This document shows, one piece after another, positions 2,754 to 56,339 of a stretch of DNA of 56,339 nucleotides (its first letter is position 1; every line of letters begins with the position of its first letter). A program made the translations under genes and the position numbers. Source of the DNA: an uncultured Gammaproteobacteria bacterium (GTDB lineage Bacteria > Patescibacteriota > Patescibacteriia > SBBC01 > CAIJZX01); assembly GCA_964518425.1 (NCBI GenBank), contig CAZFGG010000001.1:120597-176935 (forward strand). The letters are read 5' to 3'. The notes below the pieces were generated by a model. The model was not told the DNA's origin. It saw nothing but the letters and a program-made list of their open reading frames with translations, and ran no database searches.

Positions 2754-3965
2754 ATGCCCGTCTACGATTATAAAGCCAAAGATGCTGACGGTACGACGAT
2801 TACCGGCGCGGTTGAAGCGCCGAACGACGTTGTTGCCCAAGACACCCTGAAGGAACGCAGCCTGATCGTTGTTTCGTTGTCCGAACGAAAACGGAATACG
2901 CTCTTCCAGTCGAGCTTAGGTTTCTTCAACCGCGTACCCAAGAAAGATGTGGTTCTATTCGCCAGGCAGTTAGCGGTCATGATTTCCGCTACCGTCCCGA
3001 TCGTCCAAGCCCTTCGTATTCTCGTCAAGCAGACATCGAACATCACGTTTAAAATTATCATCTCCGAAATCGCTGACGAAGTTGATGGTGGCGCGAAACT
3101 TTCTGGTTCATTGGCCCGGTACCCCCAAGCTTTTTCCGATTTCTTCATTCACATGGTCCGTTCCGGAGAGACGACCGGCAAACTCGACGAGACCCTGAAT
3201 TACCTGGCCGACCAGCAAGAAAAAGATTACGATCTCGAAAGCAAAATTAGAGGCGCGATGATCTACCCGGCCTTTATCCTCAGCGCCATGGTTGTGATCG
3301 GCGTTCTCATGATGGTTTTCGTCATCCCGAAACTAACTGACGCCCTGAAAGCAGGCGGGGCAAAGTTACCGCTGGCGACAACCATCCTGATCGGTATTAG
3401 TAGTTTTCTACAGCACCAATGGTGGCTATTATTGGCCCTGATCATCATTGGTGTAACGGTTGCCCGGCTCTACTTACGTACGCCCGGCGGTCATCGGCAA
3501 TTTGATACGCTCAAGTTCCACTTGCCGATTTTTGGGGAAATTTTCCAAAAAATTTACCTCGTTCGTTTCTCTCGGAGTTTTTCAACGCTCATCGCCAGCG
3601 GTATCCCGGCCACGAAAGCCCTAGAAATTGTAGCTGACGTCATTGGCAACGTCATTTACAAAGATTTAACACTCCAAACAATTCAGGAGGTTGAGGCGGG
3701 GAATTCGATTGCCTCGGTCCTCGTCCAAAGCAAGGTCGTCCCGCCGATGTTACCACAAATGATGATCGTCGGGGAACAGACCGGTAAACTTGACCTTATT
3801 TTGGATAAGTTAGCGACCTTCTACGCTAAGGAACTTGAAAACGTTGTGGCGAACTTGGTCAGCATTATCGAGCCGTTAATCCTGGTTGTCATGGGTGGGG
3901 CGGTCGCGGTTATTGTCATGGCTATTTTGCTCCCGCTCTACAATCTTTCCAGTGCCATTAGTTAG
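2754..3965 (+). CDS. pilC: Type IV pilus inner-membrane platform protein PilC/GspF
   Basis: 403 aa with a duplicated GspF-type cytoplasmic domain and three hydrophobic segments. Lies directly after pilB/pilT. Confidence 0.92.
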   Translation: MPVYDYKAKDADGTTITGAVEAPNDVVAQDTLKERSLIVVSLSERKRNTLFQSSLGFFNRVPKKDVVLFARQLAVMISATVPIVQALRILVKQTSNITFKIIISEIADEVDGGAKLSGSLARYPQAFSDFFIHMVRSGETTGKLDETLNYLADQQEKDYDLESKIRGAMIYPAFILSAMVVIGVLMMVFVIPKLTDALKAGGAKLPLATTILIGISSFLQHQWWLLLALIIIGVTVARLYLRTPGGHRQFDTLKFHLPIFGEIFQKIYLVRFSRSFSTLIASGIPATKALEIVADVIGNVIYKDLTLQTIQEVEAGNSIASVLVQSKVVPPMLPQMMIVGEQTGKLDLILDKLATFYAKELENVVANLVSIIEPLILVVMGGAVAVIVMAILLPLYNLSSAIS

Positions 3966-4105: not shown

Positions 4106-4663
4106 ATGCAGAAACAGAAAAAAGGTTTTACGCTTATCGAACTGTTGGTGGTCATCGCCATCATCGGTATTTTGTCAGCCATTGGTCTCGTCTCGTTGAA
4201 CGGTGCTCGTGAAAAAGCCCGCGATGCGCAACGGAAAAGTGACTTGGCCCAGATTCGTTCGGCCCTCGTCCTCTTCTACGACGACAACAACTCCAAATGG
4301 CCAGGTATGACAACGGCTTCCGGCACCGTGGTTCAAGCAGTTGCCTCGTGCTTAACAGCTAACCTTGTCACCAACTACCTTCAATTGATGCCAACGTCAC
4401 CATCCTCGAGCACCGCCTGTAGCAACTCGGGAACGTATTATTACGGCTCGAGCGGTCAGTCAGCGGCGGGTTGTGCTAACTTGTCTACGGACTACATCTT
4501 AGCAGCTCAGCTCGAAGGTCAGACGTGCAAACAAGCCTACATCCTCAACTCATTAGGATTCGGCGGAACAGTTGCTGAAACAACCGGCAACAACGTTACG
4601 GTCGCCACTTGTGGTGGTGGTTCGAATAACGAATGTGTAGCAGCCCCCCCAGCCCTTCCGTAA
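4106..4663 (+). CDS. Type IV prepilin, major pilin candidate
   Basis: GGGAGG Shine-Dalgarno 8 nt upstream. Leader MQKQKKG|FTLIELLVVIAIIGIL with Glu+5. Cys-containing C-terminal half and its own terminator. Confidence 0.9.
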   Translation: MQKQKKGFTLIELLVVIAIIGILSAIGLVSLNGAREKARDAQRKSDLAQIRSALVLFYDDNNSKWPGMTTASGTVVQAVASCLTANLVTNYLQLMPTSPSSSTACSNSGTYYYGSSGQSAAGCANLSTDYILAAQLEGQTCKQAYILNSLGFGGTVAETTGNNVTVATCGGGSNNECVAAPPALP

Positions 4664-4681
4664 TTCTGTGAAGGTTTGAAA

Positions 4682-4710
4682 ATGGCATCATACGATGCCA
4701 TTTTCTTTTT
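4682..4710 (+). terminator. Intrinsic terminator after the pilin gene
   Basis: 8-bp stem ATGGCATC/GATGCCAT with a 4-nt loop, followed by TTTCTTTTT. Confidence 0.8.
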
Positions 4711-4722
4711 AGGGAGAAAAAA

Positions 4723-4731
4723 TGCTATGAT
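4723..4731 (+). promoter_or_regulatory. Extended -10 (TGcTATGAT) placed 6 nt before ATG 4738, implying a leaderless mRNA
   Basis: TGnTATGAT, then 6 nt, then the start codon, with no SD sequence. Confidence 0.5.
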
Positions 4732-4737
4732 ACGCTC

Positions 4738-5340
4738 ATGGCATTTATATTTTCGGCACCATTTTGGTTCACCTGGGGTTTTTCAGGGATGATGTCAATA
4801 CTTCTCCTGGCGATATGGTTTTTGCATTTTCTCAAACGATGGCCATTGAAAATGTGGGTTTTTCTAGTTGCTCTGAGTATTCAAGCAGTAAGCGTAGGGG
4901 CTTATTTTTTCCTCCTGTGGACATCATATGGAGGCCTGCGCGGGGAAAAATATTTTCTACCGCCGCAGAACCAGATTTTATTGACCTCAGCGATGCATAT
5001 GCTCCAGCCGTACCTGGTTGGGTGGGTAGCCGCTCTCATCATCGCCTTGGTGTTATGGAAGATTTATGCTCGTTCAAAAGACCAGGTCGCCTTTGATCTG
5101 ACTGACGTGTATTGGATAACCCTTGGCTGCGGCTTGTGTAGCTGGCCAGGATTGTTGCCGTTCTTAGCACTCATTTTTGCCTTCGCCGTCCTGGGGATGA
5201 TATTCCTGGTCATCATTCGAAAACGATCATTTCATGATCGCCTAGTTATTTCACCGTTTATTGTTCCAGCGGCGGTTATCAGCTTAATGACAAATCCATG
5301 GGTTCTCCCGTGGACTCATCTCGATAAGATTCGTTTTTAG
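4738..5340 (+). CDS. Polytopic membrane protein of unknown function inside the pilus locus
   Basis: 200-aa ORF with five to six hydrophobic segments. No family recognised. Confidence 0.7.
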   Translation: MAFIFSAPFWFTWGFSGMMSILLLAIWFLHFLKRWPLKMWVFLVALSIQAVSVGAYFFLLWTSYGGLRGEKYFLPPQNQILLTSAMHMLQPYLVGWVAALIIALVLWKIYARSKDQVAFDLTDVYWITLGCGLCSWPGLLPFLALIFAFAVLGMIFLVIIRKRSFHDRLVISPFIVPAAVISLMTNPWVLPWTHLDKIRF

Positions 5341-15782: not shown

Positions 15783-15854
15783 GATATTATTCGTAGGCGG
15801 ATAAGGATGTGATGTTCGGGTAATCTCAACCCCACCCCTTCCCCGTCTAAAGAC

Positions 15855-15886
15855 AGCCCCTCCCCCTGAATTCAGGGGGAGGGGCT
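15855..15886. repeat. 32-nt perfect palindrome (AGCCCCTCCCCCTGAA/TTCAGGGGGAGGGGCT)
   Basis: Exact self-complementarity centred on GAATTC, located 70 nt after the ndk stop, with only a weak T tract. Confidence 0.8.
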
Positions 15887-16038
15887 TTGAGATGGGGTGC
15901 TGAAAACTGACCATTGACGCCCTCACCCAAGAGCGTATGCTACTTCTCCTCCCGATTCCCGTACCTTCCTCTAGCCCTCAGCGAGCTCTTTCCGCCCTTT
16001 ACAACCCAATACTTACCCACTAGTCCAACCAAGGACTT

Positions 16039-16245
16039 ATGATTCACGTTACACTAGATACGGCCCCGTACCTCGCGCCTTTACTGGCGTTCACTCATTC
16101 CTATGGGATGATGGTCATCGGCGCCTTCCTGGTGCTGACCGCTTTTTCCGGACGCAAGTTCGGACCATTCGCGCTTCTTCCCTTGGTCATTGGACTGGGG
16201 ATTGTATTGAGTGGTGCGGCGCACCTCTTCCCCCATTGGGGGTAG
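16039..16245 (+). CDS. Small two-TM membrane protein, hypothetical
   Basis: 68-aa hydrophobic ORF. No family recognised. Confidence 0.5.
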   Translation: MIHVTLDTAPYLAPLLAFTHSYGMMVIGAFLVLTAFSGRKFGPFALLPLVIGLGIVLSGAAHLFPHWG

Positions 16246-16362
16246 GAGAAATGAAGTCCTTGGGAATACCCTGGACTTCTTCTTTTACTTGACTGGTTCG
16301 CCCAAGGGGACTAGGGTGAGCCTACGTCATTTCAGTTGCTCATTCCACCTCGGAGGCTAGAG

Positions 16363-19200: not shown

Positions 19201-19785
19201 ATGTGGAAAAATATGGTTATTCTCAGCGTCATTGCGGCGGTCGCTGTTGCTGGGCTTGCCGCCTGGGCTCTCACGATGAGGGGTTCTTCATCGAATACAA
19301 ATATTCTTGTTCCGATTGGGAACAATGGGAATACTTCAGCGAATAATGTGAATGCAAACTCGCTCAATACCAATATCGTTGAGAACGCCTCGACAACGAA
19401 TACGTCAGCCAACAGCAATACATCATCCACGACCAACACGTCAAGCAACACCAACAGTTCCACGACCAACATCGGCGTTGATGCCGCCTTAGCTCAGCCA
19501 AGCCTGTACGACGGGAAACGCGTCTGTCTCGCCGGCGACTTCCAAAAATCGTTTGAGACCCAGGTCTTCGGAACGCAAATGACCACTGACGCTTACGGTA
19601 ATCCGTCCCTTGATGGACCATACGTCTACGCTAGCGGCACCGTGACGACGACCGGTCTAACCTGTGACCAGGCCGAGCGGCAAACGTGCACCGGCACGAA
19701 GACTTTGTGTGGAACATTCAAGGTGGCGACATCGACTGATGGGTTCACCTCGCAGCACTACAGGTACGAACTCATCATCAAATAG
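19201..19785 (+). CDS. Membrane-anchored surface protein with an Asn/Ser/Thr-rich linker
   Basis: N-terminal TM segment, about 70 aa of N/S/T low-complexity sequence, then a Cys-containing C-terminal domain. Confidence 0.7.
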   Translation: MWKNMVILSVIAAVAVAGLAAWALTMRGSSSNTNILVPIGNNGNTSANNVNANSLNTNIVENASTTNTSANSNTSSTTNTSSNTNSSTTNIGVDAALAQPSLYDGKRVCLAGDFQKSFETQVFGTQMTTDAYGNPSLDGPYVYASGTVTTTGLTCDQAERQTCTGTKTLCGTFKVATSTDGFTSQHYRYELIIK

Positions 19786-31711: not shown

Positions 31712-31730
31712 ATAATTCTGCAGCGGTGGT

Positions 31731-31767
31731 ACACAGCGCCGGTTTCGAAACCGGCGCTGTGTTTTTT
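31731..31767 (+). terminator. Intrinsic terminator after fusA
   Basis: Perfect palindrome ACACAGCGCCGGTTT..AAACCGGCGCTGTGT (about 13 bp effective stem) followed by T6. Confidence 0.85.
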
Positions 31768-31798
31768 CAATAAGCCAATGCTTATCCGGACAACCTGT

Positions 31799-32220
31799 GA
31801 ATAAATCTGCGGAAAACCCTGGGGGTAGGCTGGTGAAAACACCGCTTGTGCCGATACTGGCCATGCTTTATTCTTTTTTCACGAAGCAGCGACCGTCCGT
31901 TTGTAACCGATGAGGCCAGAGGCCAGTGACCACGCAAGTGGAAACAAACCGATGACCAGGAGAGTCGAAGCGATCGTAAGATCGAAAAGACAATCCGACA
32001 GAGGATACGAACAAAACTGGTGCGACCGGAGAAACGGAAGCGATTGCGGCCCACAAAGCCACGAACGAGACCGAATCATCGGAACATCAGTTGATCGAAA
32101 GATCAGAACCTCTATGCCAAGGTCTGGGGCAACCTGGATCACAACATGAGTTCTCGACGAACACGCTGCCTCAAGGGGCCCCGAAACTTCAGCAATGAAG
32201 CGTAAGGGCCCTCTTTTTTT
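31799..32220 (+). ncRNA. Candidate large structured RNA(s) in the fusA-tuf spacer, family unresolved
   Basis: No credible ORF. Four GNRA-tetraloop hairpins: CCAC-GCAA-GTGG 31930-31941, CGATC-GTAA-GATCG 31971-31984, TGATC-GAAA-GATCA 32092-32105, CTTCA-GCAA-TGAAG 32187-32200. An internal T6 lies at 31874-31879 and a terminal hairpin plus T7 at 32175-32220. Confidence 0.45.
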
Positions 32221-32282
32221 GCTAAGATTAGCTTAGAATGTGGTTTTGAGAACCTGACTGCTAGCCCATTTTAGGCCAAGAC

Positions 32283-32311
32283 TTGCGTTATTTCAGCCAT
32301 CTTGATATACT
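32283..32311 (+). promoter_or_regulatory. Sigma-70 type promoter for tuf (TTGCGT-N17-TATACT)
   Basis: 17-nt spacing, about 60 nt upstream of the tuf ATG. Confidence 0.55.
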
Positions 32312-32371
32312 CCGACCTGCGTTTCACGTGCTTTCTTAAGCAATTTTTTAACTTCGTAGGCATATACGACC

Positions 32372-41810: not shown

Positions 41811-42344
41811 ATGCCTCTCCCTTCTGTCCAAAAACGCGGTGGCGGCCAACGTCGGGGACGACGCAGTGGTCCTCGTGAAGCGCGAGAATTTGAGCAAAAG
41901 ACGATTGACCTGGCTCGCGTTACCCGTGTCGTCGCTGGTGGAAAGCGGATGCGTTTCCGCGCCACCGTCGCTATTGGCGATCAAAAAGGTAAACTCGGCA
42001 TTGGTATCGCCAAAGGCAATGACGTTTCGACGGCCATTCAAAAAGCCGTGACCGCCGCCAAGAAACATATGATTGTTGTGCCGATCGTGAACGATTCGAT
42101 TCCCCACCCGATCATGACCAAATATGGCGCAGCCAAAGTCCTCCTGAAGCCGGCGCCGAAAGGAAGTGGTGTCATTGCCGGTGGATCCGTGCGGCTGTTG
42201 ATGGAACTAGCCGGCGTCAAAAATGTGGTCGGAAAAATTCTCGGCTCGCCGAACAAAATTAATAATGTTTACGCTGTGATGCAAGCCTTGGCCAAATTAA
42301 AAACACGTGAACAGGCGGCCGCCCAACGAGGGAAAACACTATGA
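41811..42344 (+). CDS. rpsE: 30S ribosomal protein S5
   Basis: RV.RVV.GGKR.RF.A.V..GD..G..G.G.GKA and GSGVIAGG.VR. Confidence 0.97.
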   Translation: MPLPSVQKRGGGQRRGRRSGPREAREFEQKTIDLARVTRVVAGGKRMRFRATVAIGDQKGKLGIGIAKGNDVSTAIQKAVTAAKKHMIVVPIVNDSIPHPIMTKYGAAKVLLKPAPKGSGVIAGGSVRLLMELAGVKNVVGKILGSPNKINNVYAVMQALAKLKTREQAAAQRGKTL

Positions 42345-42886
42345 TCCCGTTAGAAGCTATTATGCCCACATCTCCAAAACATCCTACTACTCAACGCTCG
42401 ATGAAAGGAGCTTCTAACGGGATGATCAGCCTGCACACGCTTTCGCCATCTCAAACGCGCCAGAAGTACAAACGTGTCGGTCGAGGAAACTCGTCCGGTA
42501 AGGGTACGACGGCTGGTCGCGGAACGAAAGGCCAACGCGCCCGGACTGGTGGACGAAATAAACTGACCCGTCGCGGCTTGAAGCATCTGATTGAACGGAC
42601 GCCGAAAACACGAGGCTTTCTCAGCCGACGAACAGCTATGTCCGTTGTGACCTTAAGCCAGCTTCAACAATCATTCTCCGATGGTCAGACGATTTCGCCA
42701 AACGCCTTGGTCAAGGCCGGCCTGCTCGCGCCGTCTCATCGCGGGGTTAAAATTATTGGTAACACGATCAGCAAGAAATTGATTATCAAGGCCAGCAAGT
42801 TTTCCTCGGCCGCCGCCGCGGCCATCACGAAAGCCGGCGGTCAAGCGGTCATGCCTGAAGCACAACCATCGTCTAACCCCACATAA
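42341..42886 (+). CDS. rplO: 50S ribosomal protein L15 (start uncertain: 42341 ATGA-overlap or 42422)
   Basis: KRVGRGNSSGKGTTAGRGTKGQ.AR.G. It follows rpsE directly, with no L30 gene in between. Confidence 0.93.
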   Translation: MIPLEAIMPTSPKHPTTQRSMKGASNGMISLHTLSPSQTRQKYKRVGRGNSSGKGTTAGRGTKGQRARTGGRNKLTRRGLKHLIERTPKTRGFLSRRTAMSVVTLSQLQQSFSDGQTISPNALVKAGLLAPSHRGVKIIGNTISKKLIIKASKFSSAAAAAITKAGGQAVMPEAQPSSNPT

Positions 42887-47652: not shown

Positions 47653-47961
47653 ATGTTCGCCATTATCCGCACCGGCGGTAAACAATACCGCGTCTCACCA
47701 GGGGACTCCCTGAAAATCGAGAAACTGAAAACTCCGGCCGGGAAATCCGTGGAATTTTCCGATGTCTTGCTCGTGTCCGACAAAGACACGACGATTGGCA
47801 CGCCGCTTGTCACTAAGGCCAAAGTCAGTGGTACCGTCGTGAAACACGCCCAGGGTGATAAAGTCACCGGCTACAAGTTCCACAACAAAGTCCGCTATAC
47901 TCGGAAGCTCGGTCATCGCCAAGAATATACGGAAGTCAAAATCGAGAAGATTTCGGTTTAA
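47653..47961 (+). CDS. rplU: 50S ribosomal protein L21
   Basis: MFAIIRTGGKQYRV..GD.L..EKL. Confidence 0.96.
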   Translation: MFAIIRTGGKQYRVSPGDSLKIEKLKTPAGKSVEFSDVLLVSDKDTTIGTPLVTKAKVSGTVVKHAQGDKVTGYKFHNKVRYTRKLGHRQEYTEVKIEKISV

Positions 47962-47978
47962 GAGATCCATTCACAACG

Positions 47979-48010
47979 CACAGCGCGGGCTTAAAGCCCG
48001 CGCTGTGTTT
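47979..48010 (+). terminator. Terminator hairpin after rplU
   Basis: 12-bp stem CACAGCGCGGGC/GCCCGCGCTGTG, loop TTAAA, then TTT. Confidence 0.7.
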
Positions 48011-48031
48011 GCGTAATCTTTGCATTGGCCC

Positions 48032-48060
48032 TTGACAGTATGACATATCTATGCTAACGT
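48032..48060 (+). promoter_or_regulatory. Promoter TTGACA-N17(TGc)-TAACGT that drives the non-coding region downstream
   Basis: Perfect -35 with 17-nt spacing and the same TGcTAnnnT -10 type as other promoters in the window. Confidence 0.55.
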
Positions 48061-48066
48061 CCTGCT

Positions 48067-48566
48067 TGCTTCATGGTTCACCTAGGGGCTAGGTGGCCTT
48101 GGAGGAGGAACACCTCCTTGGACAGGAGTGGCCGTACCATTCCTGGAGACCACCTTCTCATCGGTCGACCGTCCCGAGCCCCTCACCAGACGGTCACCCA
48201 GTAGTACTGGCTCACTCGCCGTTGTGGGTACGGCAGGCAGTTGTTTGAACCCTCCTTCCCTGGCCATGATGGTGGCCTAGCAGGGGTACGGCCTCTGCAA
48301 AAAGGATGACACCATTCCTGGGCGTGTGGGGACCATCCCCCCGAGCGAGGTGCGCTGATAGCCTCGTGAAGTGGCCTGATCAAAAGGCCAGCACTAAACT
48401 CTGCCAAGCCCTGGCAAAGCGTGCGCGACGTTCCCCTCGCGTGTTGTACCTGCTTCCTTACTTGGATCCCTGGCGCATGAGAGCGTCTAGTCGAAGATCA
48501 GCCTTCGATGAAAAGGATCCTTCCTCTTCCAGAGCCCCGCTTGAAACTAAGCCGGGCTCTTTTTTA
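48067..48566 (+). ncRNA. Candidate ~500-nt stand-alone structured RNA, family unresolved
   Basis: It has its own promoter and a plus-oriented terminator (48531-48566: 10-bp stem with one mismatch, then a T-run) and no credible ORF. Hairpins are dense. A 9-bp long-range complement pairs GGCCGTACC 48130-48138 with GGTACGGCC 48285-48293. An 11-nt direct repeat ACCATTCCTGG occurs at 48136 and 48311. Confidence 0.5.
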
Positions 48567-49163
48567 CACCTTCTGTCGGTGGTTCATCGCCTCGCCCAAT
48601 GTGGCTTCGTCCATGTAGGTCACATCCCCGCCAGTCGGAATACCCCGAGCAAGTTGGGTAATGTTGACATTAAGTGGTTGGATCGCTTTTTTGAGGTAGA
48701 GGGCCGTGGTCTCGCCTTCAATGTCCGGGTTCATGGCTAGGATGATTTCGGTAATTTCTTCCTTGGGAATGCGCTGAAGTAAGTCAGCCATGAAGAGTTG
48801 CTCCGGTCCGCGGCCCTCCATGGCGCTGACCGTGCCGCCGAGGACATGGTACAAGCCGTGGTAGGCGCCAGAGTGTTCAATAGCTAGGAGATCCGGGGTG
48901 TCTGTCACGACACAAATTGTTTTTTGATCTCGCTGGGAATCACGGCAATACCGGCAAGGGGATTGCTGGTCGAAATTATGGCAGCGCTGGCAGGTGACAA
49001 TTTCATCACGAAGATGTTCAACCGATTGCGCTAACTCATGGAGACGGCCGGGCGATTGACGGAGTAGCGAAAAAACATAACGCTCCGCTGTTTTCGGCCC
49101 GACGCCAGGCAAGCCCGTTAGGGCCTGGAGAAGGCGGTCAATCGCCGGCGGGTACTGCGGCAT
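48564..49163 (-). CDS. recR: Recombination protein RecR
   Basis: LPGVGPKTAER, zinc finger CQRC...CRYC, Toprim ICVV....D......G.Y.G.YHVLGG. Confidence 0.96.
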   Translation of the reverse strand: MPQYPPAIDRLLQALTGLPGVGPKTAERYVFSLLRQSPGRLHELAQSVEHLRDEIVTCQRCHNFDQQSPCRYCRDSQRDQKTICVVTDTPDLLAIEHSGAYHGLYHVLGGTVSAMEGRGPEQLFMADLLQRIPKEEITEIILAMNPDIEGETTALYLKKAIQPLNVNITQLARGIPTGGDVTYMDEATLGEAMNHRQKV

Positions 49164-56284: not shown

Positions 56285-56339
56285 TGGTGGGTCCCCTGGG
56301 ACTCGAACCCAGAACCCACGGCTTAAAAGGCCGTTGCTC
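56285..56339 (-). tRNA. tRNA-Lys (anticodon UUU), 5' part cut by the window edge
   Basis: The reverse complement reads ...ACGGC-CTTTTAA-GCCGT-GGGTT-CTGGG-TTCGAGT-CCCAG-GGGACCC-A-CCA. Confidence 0.88.

Follow-up and report, generated by a model that had tools for sequence, protein, structure and literature searches.

A predicted structured non-coding RNA gene between rplU and recR with related units in Candidatus Kerfeldbacteria

Comparative genomic surveys (Breaker and Weinberg) have yielded a number of orphan structured non-coding RNAs, among them the raiA motif RNA of ~200 nt. Bacteria of the Candidate Phyla Radiation (CPR; Patescibacteria) are uncultured and have tiny genomes with little non-coding DNA. 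To our knowledge, apart from the universal ones, hardly any non-coding RNAs have been described for this large part of the bacterial tree, which includes Candidatus Kerfeldbacteria, tiny uncultured groundwater bacteria. The present analysis concerns a stretch of 56,339 nt (positions 120,597 to 176,935 of contig CAZFGG010000001.1, assembly GCA_964518425.1, deposited as an uncultured Gammaproteobacteria bacterium and placed in the Patescibacteriota by GTDB), which is referred to as the window; coordinates without a contig name belong to it. Between the convergent genes rplU and recR, positions 48067-48566 of the plus strand very likely hold a stand-alone gene for a structured non-coding RNA, complete with promoter and terminator. 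The reading as a whole, which we consider probable, is that of a structured non-coding RNA gene of a small family found only in Candidatus Kerfeldbacteria, the product of which acts in trans.

The unit in the window and four related units from other contigs (see below) resemble raiA-type orphan RNAs in their own promoter and intrinsic terminator, the non-coding, multi-hairpin core, the A-rich joining strands, and the narrow phylogenetic range. They differ in the lack of a sequence or structure match in Rfam 15, in their distribution among Kerfeldbacteria, and in 5' extensions that are unusually large and unconserved. With OLE, ROOL, GOLLD, and HEARO RNAs, they share the size class (~500 nt in the window, 540 nt in the relative L053) and a strong predicted structure. 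However, only ~100-200 nt are conserved, the shortest member has ~260 nt, and an IscB-type neighbour as known for HEARO is not present here. RNase P RNA and transfer-messenger RNA (tmRNA) are similar in size, in being encoded by stand-alone genes and in their high degree of structure, but neither gave a model match, and the unit is not universal at the rplU-recR site.

When the whole window was scanned with the 4227 models of Rfam 15 at the gathering score, none matched the unit. At E<=10, there was no family match on 47900-48700 (800 nt) or on the stretches of two relatives, L053 (3800-4430) and L007 (6450-6860); the output at this threshold consisted of chance-level snoRNA, miRNA, and sRNA matches far under the gathering scores. 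The RNase P RNA models RF00010, RF00011, and RF00373, which cover the P4 pseudoknot and the conserved regions GGAAAGUCC and ACAGAA...GGCUUA, gave no match. No tmRNA was reported for the window by ARAGORN or for the searched stretches by Rfam, which bears out the original prediction, in which both RNAs had been considered because of the size and set aside. Signal recognition particle (SRP) RNA and 6S RNA had no match at E<=10, and none of the models of riboswitch and ribozyme classes, group I/II introns, OLE, ROOL, GOLLD, HEARO, or raiA matched. The loop of hairpin P2 (see below) is different in every member and the fold is multi-branched, as opposed to the GNRA loop of SRP helix 8 and the long hairpin with a central bubble of 6S RNA. 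In the searchable literature, no description of such an RNA from Kerfeldbacteria or other CPR bacteria was found.

The locus is composed of the following elements:
47653-47961, plus strand, rplU
47979-48007, plus strand, rplU terminator hairpin, CACAGCGCGGGC-TTAAA-GCCCGCGCTGTG followed by TTTGCG, a 14-nt perfect inverted repeat
48032-48060, plus strand, promoter with the −35 box TTGACA (48032-48037) and a 17-nt spacer ending in TGc
48052-48053 and 48055-48060, plus strand, extended −10 TG and −10 box TAACGT
48531-48566, plus strand, intrinsic terminator, AGAGCCCCGC-UUGAAACUAA-GCCGGGCUCU and U6
48564-49163, minus strand, recR

The hairpin at 47979-48007 sets the rplU transcript apart from the RNA unit, the transcription of which probably starts at ~48067-48068. 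The promoter pattern TTGAC[AT]-N16-18-TAnnnT has just six matches on both strands of the 56-kb window. All of them are intergenic, have a 17-nt spacer, and are oriented along the gene direction; five are located directly upstream of genes, rplU included, and the sixth is the promoter of the RNA unit. Because the genome's own pattern is rare, intergenic, and gene-directed, the promoter call at 48032-48060 is credible. It was missed by a generic promoter scanner because TAACGT agrees with TATAAT at three of six positions only. The −10 hexamer TAGGGT, 17 nt after TTGAC(A/T), recurs at 16289, 24558, and 49520 of the window and at 3852 of L053; this unusual G-rich −10 box may possibly be typical of the lineage.

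The terminator stem spans 48531-48560 and is followed by a T-run (48560-48565) that overlaps the recR stop codon (48564-48566, minus strand). Since the minus strand has no U-run, the terminator is oriented for a plus-strand transcript, as had been proposed; a terminator scanner missed it because its loop (10 nt) exceeds 8 nt. The GC content of 48062-48561 is 0.59 compared to a window mean of 0.537, a value reached by 1.8% of the 500-nt windows, and the higher GC content noted by eye in the original prediction was thus confirmed. The plus strand folds with −209.7 kcal/mol, corresponding to z = −3.5 to −3.8 against dinucleotide shuffles, whereas folding of the minus strand is weaker (z = −2.3 to −2.8). 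For 51 other 505-nt windows, the mean z was −0.75 (standard deviation 1.09). A dicodon score was derived from 22 long window genes, with rplU, recR, ybaB, and DUF192 held out. It did not exceed ~0.16 in any of the six frames of 48000-48560, while the held-out genes scored 0.3-0.9, in agreement with the earlier statement that the region contains no convincing open reading frame (ORF). The Logan assembly L023 (SRR9179560), which is independent, is 100% identical to the window over 1347 nt, so the element is not an assembly artefact.

The RNA can be divided into a 5' domain, a core of four hairpins, and a 3' module (all on the plus strand):
48067-48345, plus strand, lineage-specific 5' domain (~280 nt) around the helix 48127-48138/48285-48296
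48079-48095, plus strand, hairpin CACCTAG-GGG-CTAGGTG of the 5' domain
48166-48195, plus strand, further hairpin of the 5' domain
48328-48340, plus strand, further hairpin of the 5' domain, GGGGA-CCA-TCCCC
48346-48366, plus strand, core hairpin P1, CGAGG (48346-48350) with CCUCG (48362-48366)
48367-48373, plus strand, conserved motif UGAAGUG
48372-48390, plus strand, core hairpin P2, UGGCCU-GAUCAAA-AGGCCA
48391-48416, plus strand, joiner GCACUAAACUC and core hairpin P3, UGCCA-AGCCC-UGGCA
48417-48444, plus strand, joiner AAAGCGU and core hairpin P4, GCGCGA-CGUUCCCC-UCGCGU (48423-48442)
48459-48530, plus strand, 3' module in the minimum-energy fold, (U)ACUU and a terminal helix of GGAUCC (48464-48469) with GGAUCC (48515-48520)
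48473-48486 and 48491-48508, plus strand, hairpins enclosed by the terminal helix in the minimum-energy fold
48521-48530, plus strand, CU-rich tail

The promoter, the hairpins, a 9-nt complement, an 11-nt repeat, and the terminator listed in the original prediction are all present. Taken one by one, the 11-nt direct repeat (ACCATTCCTGG, at 48136 and again at 48311 within the 5' domain) and the majority of the short hairpins are close to what is expected by chance. The 9-nt complement of GGCCGTACC (48130-48138) and GGTACGGCC (48285-48293) extends to a long-range helix of 12 nt with 92% complementarity (48127-48138 with 48285-48296). No counterpart of the 5' domain was detected in the compared relatives by nhmmer, blastn, or covariance models. 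The possibility that it represents a second copy of the core was rejected, as no core copy is found inside it, and no second copy of the unit or the core was found elsewhere in the 56-kb window. Tandem Repeats Finder reported no tandem repeats in the element; internal partial repeats at a spacing of 175-179 nt are weak.

RecR relatives stem nearly exclusively from metagenome-assembled genomes labelled Candidatus Kerfeldbacteria or Patescibacteria (72-83% identity), and a ribosomal-protein cluster and type IV pilus genes in the window are consistent with a Kerfeldbacteria-type organism. When 48000-48600 was compared with all collected loci by nhmmer and blastn, as suggested in the original prediction, the identical L023 was the single match; the homologous units in four relatives were found by other routes. 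These units, which are built in the same way, are located on the Candidatus Kerfeldbacteria contigs L007, L028, L053, and L027. The window and all four relatives have in common a terminator on the upstream side, a TTGACA-N17-TAnnnT promoter, a non-coding stretch of ~260-540 nt, and a closing terminator. The four units of the relatives are placed on the recR-distal side and adjoin either recR or rplU. A scan of viral contigs with an 18-base core pattern gave one match (L062), which is located inside an AT-rich phage gene and was dismissed as a chance match.

In L053 (RecR 85% identical), the non-coding rplU-recR gap comprises 611 nt. The rplU terminator is located upstream of a TTGACA-N17-TAGGGT promoter, and the unit consists of ~530-540 structured nt (z = −4.0) with a terminator touching the recR stop codon. 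In L007, the promoter TTGACA...ATGCTAAGGT follows rplU (TTGACA...ATGCTAACGT in the window); the unit of 260 nt has its own terminator (z = −4.7) and lies ahead of membrane-protein genes, which possess a separate extended −10 promoter of the type TGnTATACT (TGATATACT). The L028 unit was found with a core model built from L007 only (E = 1e-3) and shows the promoter-RNA-terminator layout adjoining recR. The same layout is present in L027, where P2 (GACUAC/GUAGUC) has two compensated pairs, as judged by eye, and the UGCC loop is the same as in L053. Both flanks, rplU and recR, are confirmed for the window and L053 only. The L007 unit follows rplU with two genes between it and recR, and the units of L027 and L028 abut recR on short contigs that do not reach the rplU side. 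The location between rplU and recR stated originally for the window is shared with L053 only; L007 retains the rplU side, and L027 and L028 retain the recR side only. Four of the five units run towards the end of a convergent gene, with no same-strand gene behind them.

L007 and L028 are homologous over their whole length (local alignment z = 23.5), and both carry GGGTAAATGGC. L053 and L027 have a common terminator domain (z = 9.9). L053 shares an exact 13-mer with L028, and exact 12- and 13-mers with L007 and L028 occur in conserved order. The direct sequence similarity between the elements of the window and L053 is not significant (p ~0.07-0.1), and the link between both was established via L007 and L028. 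Among 61 loci (325 kb, ~0.3 occurrences expected), the motif TGAAGTGRCCT was found only inside the units of L007, L053, and L023, the copy of the window unit, and on the RNA strand only. The main difference among the members is the length of the 5' extension: ~40 nt in L007, 100 in L028, 200 in L027, 280 in the window, and 350 in L053. Only the 3' part (~48346 to the end, ~200 nt) is conserved, and the 280 nt at the 5' end are lineage-specific. The proposed ~500-nt stand-alone structured unit is thus retained for the window, but not as the conserved entity, since the relatives vary between ~260 and 540 nt.

Structural conservation of the core was assessed with covariance models built from L007 only (R1) and, in order to avoid circularity, from L007 and L028 only (R3); the model calibration was shortened and the E-values are rough. 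With R3, the best match in 65 kb was 48344-48444 on the plus strand of the window (22.3 bits, E = 9e-4; next match E = 0.34), as expected for both site and strand, and P1, UGAAGUG, P2, the AGCAyyAAAC joiner, P3, and P4 were aligned in this order. R1 retrieved 48346-48444 with 14.8 bits (E = 0.4 in 251 kb, 0.03 in 21 kb), ranked after L028, and L053 lower (E = 1.2 and 0.1, respectively). Both models align P1 of the window to P1 of L007 and L028. The joiner GCACUAAACUC of the window corresponds to AGCAUCAAAC in L007 and L028. In an alignment of four core sequences, which was fitted to the structure, 95% of the cells are paired, compared to ~40% when the partners are shifted by 1-3 columns. Both partners have changed in nine of the 20 core pairs, which none of 500 shuffles reached; this number is based on the model-fitted alignment, and 4-5 sequences are too few for a formal covariation test. 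P2 is paired in all cells of the four sequences, and double-sided changes are seen in three of its six pairs.

The RNAalifold prediction for L007 and L028 comprises 50 pairs, 10 of which have compensatory double changes, and a short helix P0 formed by AAGU and ACUU. In the window, UACUU (48459-48463) was read by eye as the corresponding element; tentatively, the AAGU of UGAAGUG might pair with ACUU (48460-48463) to form a short closing helix. Likewise, ACUU-GGAUCC of the window parallels ACUU-CGGACCGAGUCC in L007 and ACUG-UGGACCGGAUCC in L028, a correspondence obtained by inspection; in L007 and L028, the terminal helix is the terminator. The minimum-energy folds of the 3' module show P1, P2, P3, and the terminal helix in the window, L007, L028, and L053. 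The L007/L028 alignment contains several single-base insertions or deletions, the translated similarity switches between reading frames, and there is no peptide common to the family members. The conservation is therefore structural and not codon-like; codon-like conservation had been named in the original prediction as an outcome that would speak against a non-coding RNA.

Several points weigh against a common family. It has just five members, consisting of two tight pairs and the window. The window is linked to the others by a core of ~100 nt with E ~1e-3 from roughly calibrated models and by an 11-nt motif, and its pairwise sequence similarity to any member is marginal (z ~2). L027 was not recovered by any of the models and L053 only weakly by R3 (5.7 bits). 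The fitting of the core alignment to the structure inflates the pairing in the pair counts. Finally, the unit is missing from the rplU-recR site in most relatives; it is either inessential in these or located elsewhere in their genomes. Of two near-complete genomes, CAVSWO010000002.1 (823 kb) carries the unit, whereas JACPSJ010000001.1 (857 kb) is devoid of it at the rplU-recR site.

The convergent arrangement of rplU and recR is conserved across Kerfeldbacteria and beyond, while the intervening content is variable. Besides the RNA unit, it consists of a spacer of 60-190 nt (L006, L008, L054, L014), a gene for a membrane anchor of 50-60 aa only (L002, L003, L005), or one or two genes encoding proteins of 190-635 aa (L001, L004, L007, L022, L026, L049, L050, L056-L061). 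The larger proteins have an N-terminal membrane anchor in common (e.g., NYLIPVVVA..AAFL.V.N) and fast-diverging bodies. The protein genes at this site use the TGnTATACT promoter without a −35 box. In L008, the spacer (4591-4780) contains a 19-bp perfect inverted repeat (AGAACTCATTTCAAAACCT...AGGTTTTGAAATGAGTTCT) around ~130 GC-rich nt, which is unrelated to the RNA family. The contigs nearest in RecR (86-90% identity) end 12-86 nt from recR or carry a protein gene. In L046 (RecR 90% identical), a hairpin (AGCGCAGGTTTCGAAACCTGCGCTGTG) adjoins recR that is similar to the near-twin terminator hairpins CACAGCGC...GCGCTGTG following fusA (31732-31761) and rplU (47979-48007) in the window, for which zero occurrences are expected by chance. 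The interpretation of the L046 hairpin as the rplU terminator, and hence of the unit as absent, was withdrawn, as the hairpin agrees just as closely with the fusA-type twin and the contig breaks off within it.

Among the alternatives to a trans-acting RNA, a cis-acting, riboswitch-like leader survives best, although we regard it as unlikely. Here, the AAGU/ACUU junction would act as the sensor and the following helix as a conditional terminator; in L007, read-through would govern the membrane-protein genes, and elsewhere it would produce antisense RNA into recR. Riboswitch-controlled antisense or non-coding RNAs are known, e.g., the B12 elements in Listeria and Enterococcus. As in transcription-terminating riboswitches, a multi-helix junction, possibly closed by a short helix, directly precedes the terminator helix and its U-run in L007, L028, L053, and L027, and genes on the same strand are located downstream of the L007 unit. 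A leader function is nevertheless less likely because four of the five units face a convergent gene end, with no downstream gene to be regulated, and because the L007 genes have an extended −10 promoter of their own, TGATATACT. The window copy speaks against regulated read-through: its homologous helix no longer carries a U-run and is followed by a second strong terminator. There was no match to a known aptamer or riboswitch model of Rfam, and inspection revealed no convincing antiterminator pairing.

Less probable still is transcribed junk, i.e., a decayed gene of a membrane-anchored protein with leftover promoter and terminator and incidental hairpins. The site is variable and occupied in relatives mostly by genes for membrane-anchor proteins or for anchors of 50-60 aa alone, and the 280 nt at the 5' end are without a homolog in anything searchable. 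On the other hand, tblastn with the proteins of the relatives revealed no trace of them in 47962-48563. The core is common to four other loci and shows compensatory changes and frame-breaking insertions and deletions, and the fold z-score is in the extreme tail. A full −35/−10 promoter is kept in all five units, as opposed to the TGnTATACT promoter of the protein genes. Because CPR genomes keep little non-coding DNA, a non-coding unit that is 500 nt long and equipped with a full promoter is unlikely to have been retained by chance.

An origin from a mobile or defence element, as its RNA part or as a relic (guide or bridge RNA, template of a retron or diversity-generating retroelement, or miniature transposon at a hot spot), is very improbable. 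The variable site, the conserved scaffold beside a hypervariable part, and the two near-identical terminator hairpins would fit such an origin. However, the unit has no neighbouring gene for a transposase, reverse transcriptase, TnpB/IscB, or recombinase. Within the window, neither another copy of the unit or core nor terminal inverted repeats or a target duplication were seen, and nothing in it looks like the element in the way a variable repeat of a diversity-generating retroelement would.

A very divergent housekeeping RNA (RNase P RNA, tmRNA, SRP RNA, or 6S RNA) seems hardly credible. Its size and stand-alone layout would fit, and CPR bacteria often have unusual RNAs, but the Rfam and ARAGORN searches described above, the absence of the unit from the rplU-recR site in most relatives, and hairpin loops that vary freely, unlike SRP or RNase P cores, speak against it. 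Just as implausible is a small protein, e.g., of 43 aa from the ATG at 48073, translated without a leader: although this ATG lies just past the promoter, ~5 nt after the predicted start, in a genome in which other genes start 6-7 nt after the −10 box and Shine-Dalgarno (SD) sequences are hardly used, the dicodon score of its frame is negative (−0.2 to −0.3), L053, L028, and L007 have no counterpart of this ORF, and gene callers were silent there in the Logan copy.

For the structured non-coding RNA, we propose the following mode of action. Transcription would proceed from the sigma-70-type promoter at 48032-48060 and end at the intrinsic terminator at 48531-48566. The functional unit would be the conserved multi-hairpin 3' module with P1 to P4, acting in trans. 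The four hairpins are joined by conserved, largely A-rich strands (UGAAGUG, AGCAyyAAAC, AAA), maybe closed by AAGU/ACUU, and followed by a long terminal helix. Because the joiners are conserved and A-rich whereas the hairpin loops are variable, a compact fold presenting a binding surface is suggested. Most likely, the module might be a platform to which a protein or some other macromolecule binds, either as a ribonucleoprotein scaffold or as a sequestering RNA; the protein-binding or scaffold role is assigned with low confidence. The lineage-specific 5' extension of 40-350 nt would be a dispensable decoration. An anti-SD small RNA was considered on account of CU-rich stretches at the 3' end, but this idea was weakened, as the genome barely uses SD sequences. 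In the window, six of 35 genes have a weak SD match and none has GGAGG. Several genes (e.g., at 19201, 19827, and 47653) have their start codon 6-7 nt behind a TGnTATACT box, pointing to leaderless mRNAs.

Other parts of the window showed further features of interest. In the fusA-tuf stretch (31712-32371), ~31880-32218 is purine-rich and without coding signal, with a best dicodon score of −0.2 and a fold z of −3.8, and is located after the fusA terminator. It ends in a plus-strand terminator (~32172-32220), gave no meaningful Rfam match, and may be a second stand-alone non-coding unit; a possible promoter, TTGTGC-17-TATTCT, is located at 31847-31875. Two other 505-nt windows, 15783-16335 and 3301-3805, reached a fold z <= −3.3; the first overlaps a 553-nt gap with a weak coding signal. 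ARAGORN reported two tRNAs in the window. One of them, a 93-nt tRNA-Arg(tcg) at 42575-42667 (minus strand) inside the ORF 42341-42886 (plus strand) of the ribosomal-protein cluster, was not reported by Rfam and is probably a false call. A tRNA cut by the window end (56288-56339, minus strand) was reported by Rfam and missed by ARAGORN.

The unit represents a new small family of an ordinary type of object, the bacterial stand-alone structured non-coding RNA, in a poorly explored phylum. The chances are about even that it constitutes a new RNA class confined to Kerfeldbacteria: a compact binding platform of four hairpins and a terminal helix with a large, freely evolving structured 5' domain of up to 350 nt, expressed from one of the strongest promoter types of a genome without SD-led translation. 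The practical gain, a candidate RNA family with five members, is modest; the conserved core provides a concrete model with which CPR genomes can be searched, and metatranscriptomics gains a defined target. The rplU-recR region is a variable locus that harbours either an RNA or fast-evolving membrane-anchored proteins and may bear on surface variation of episymbionts. If the new class in Kerfeldbacteria proves true, it would be an undescribed RNA component of CPR cell biology.

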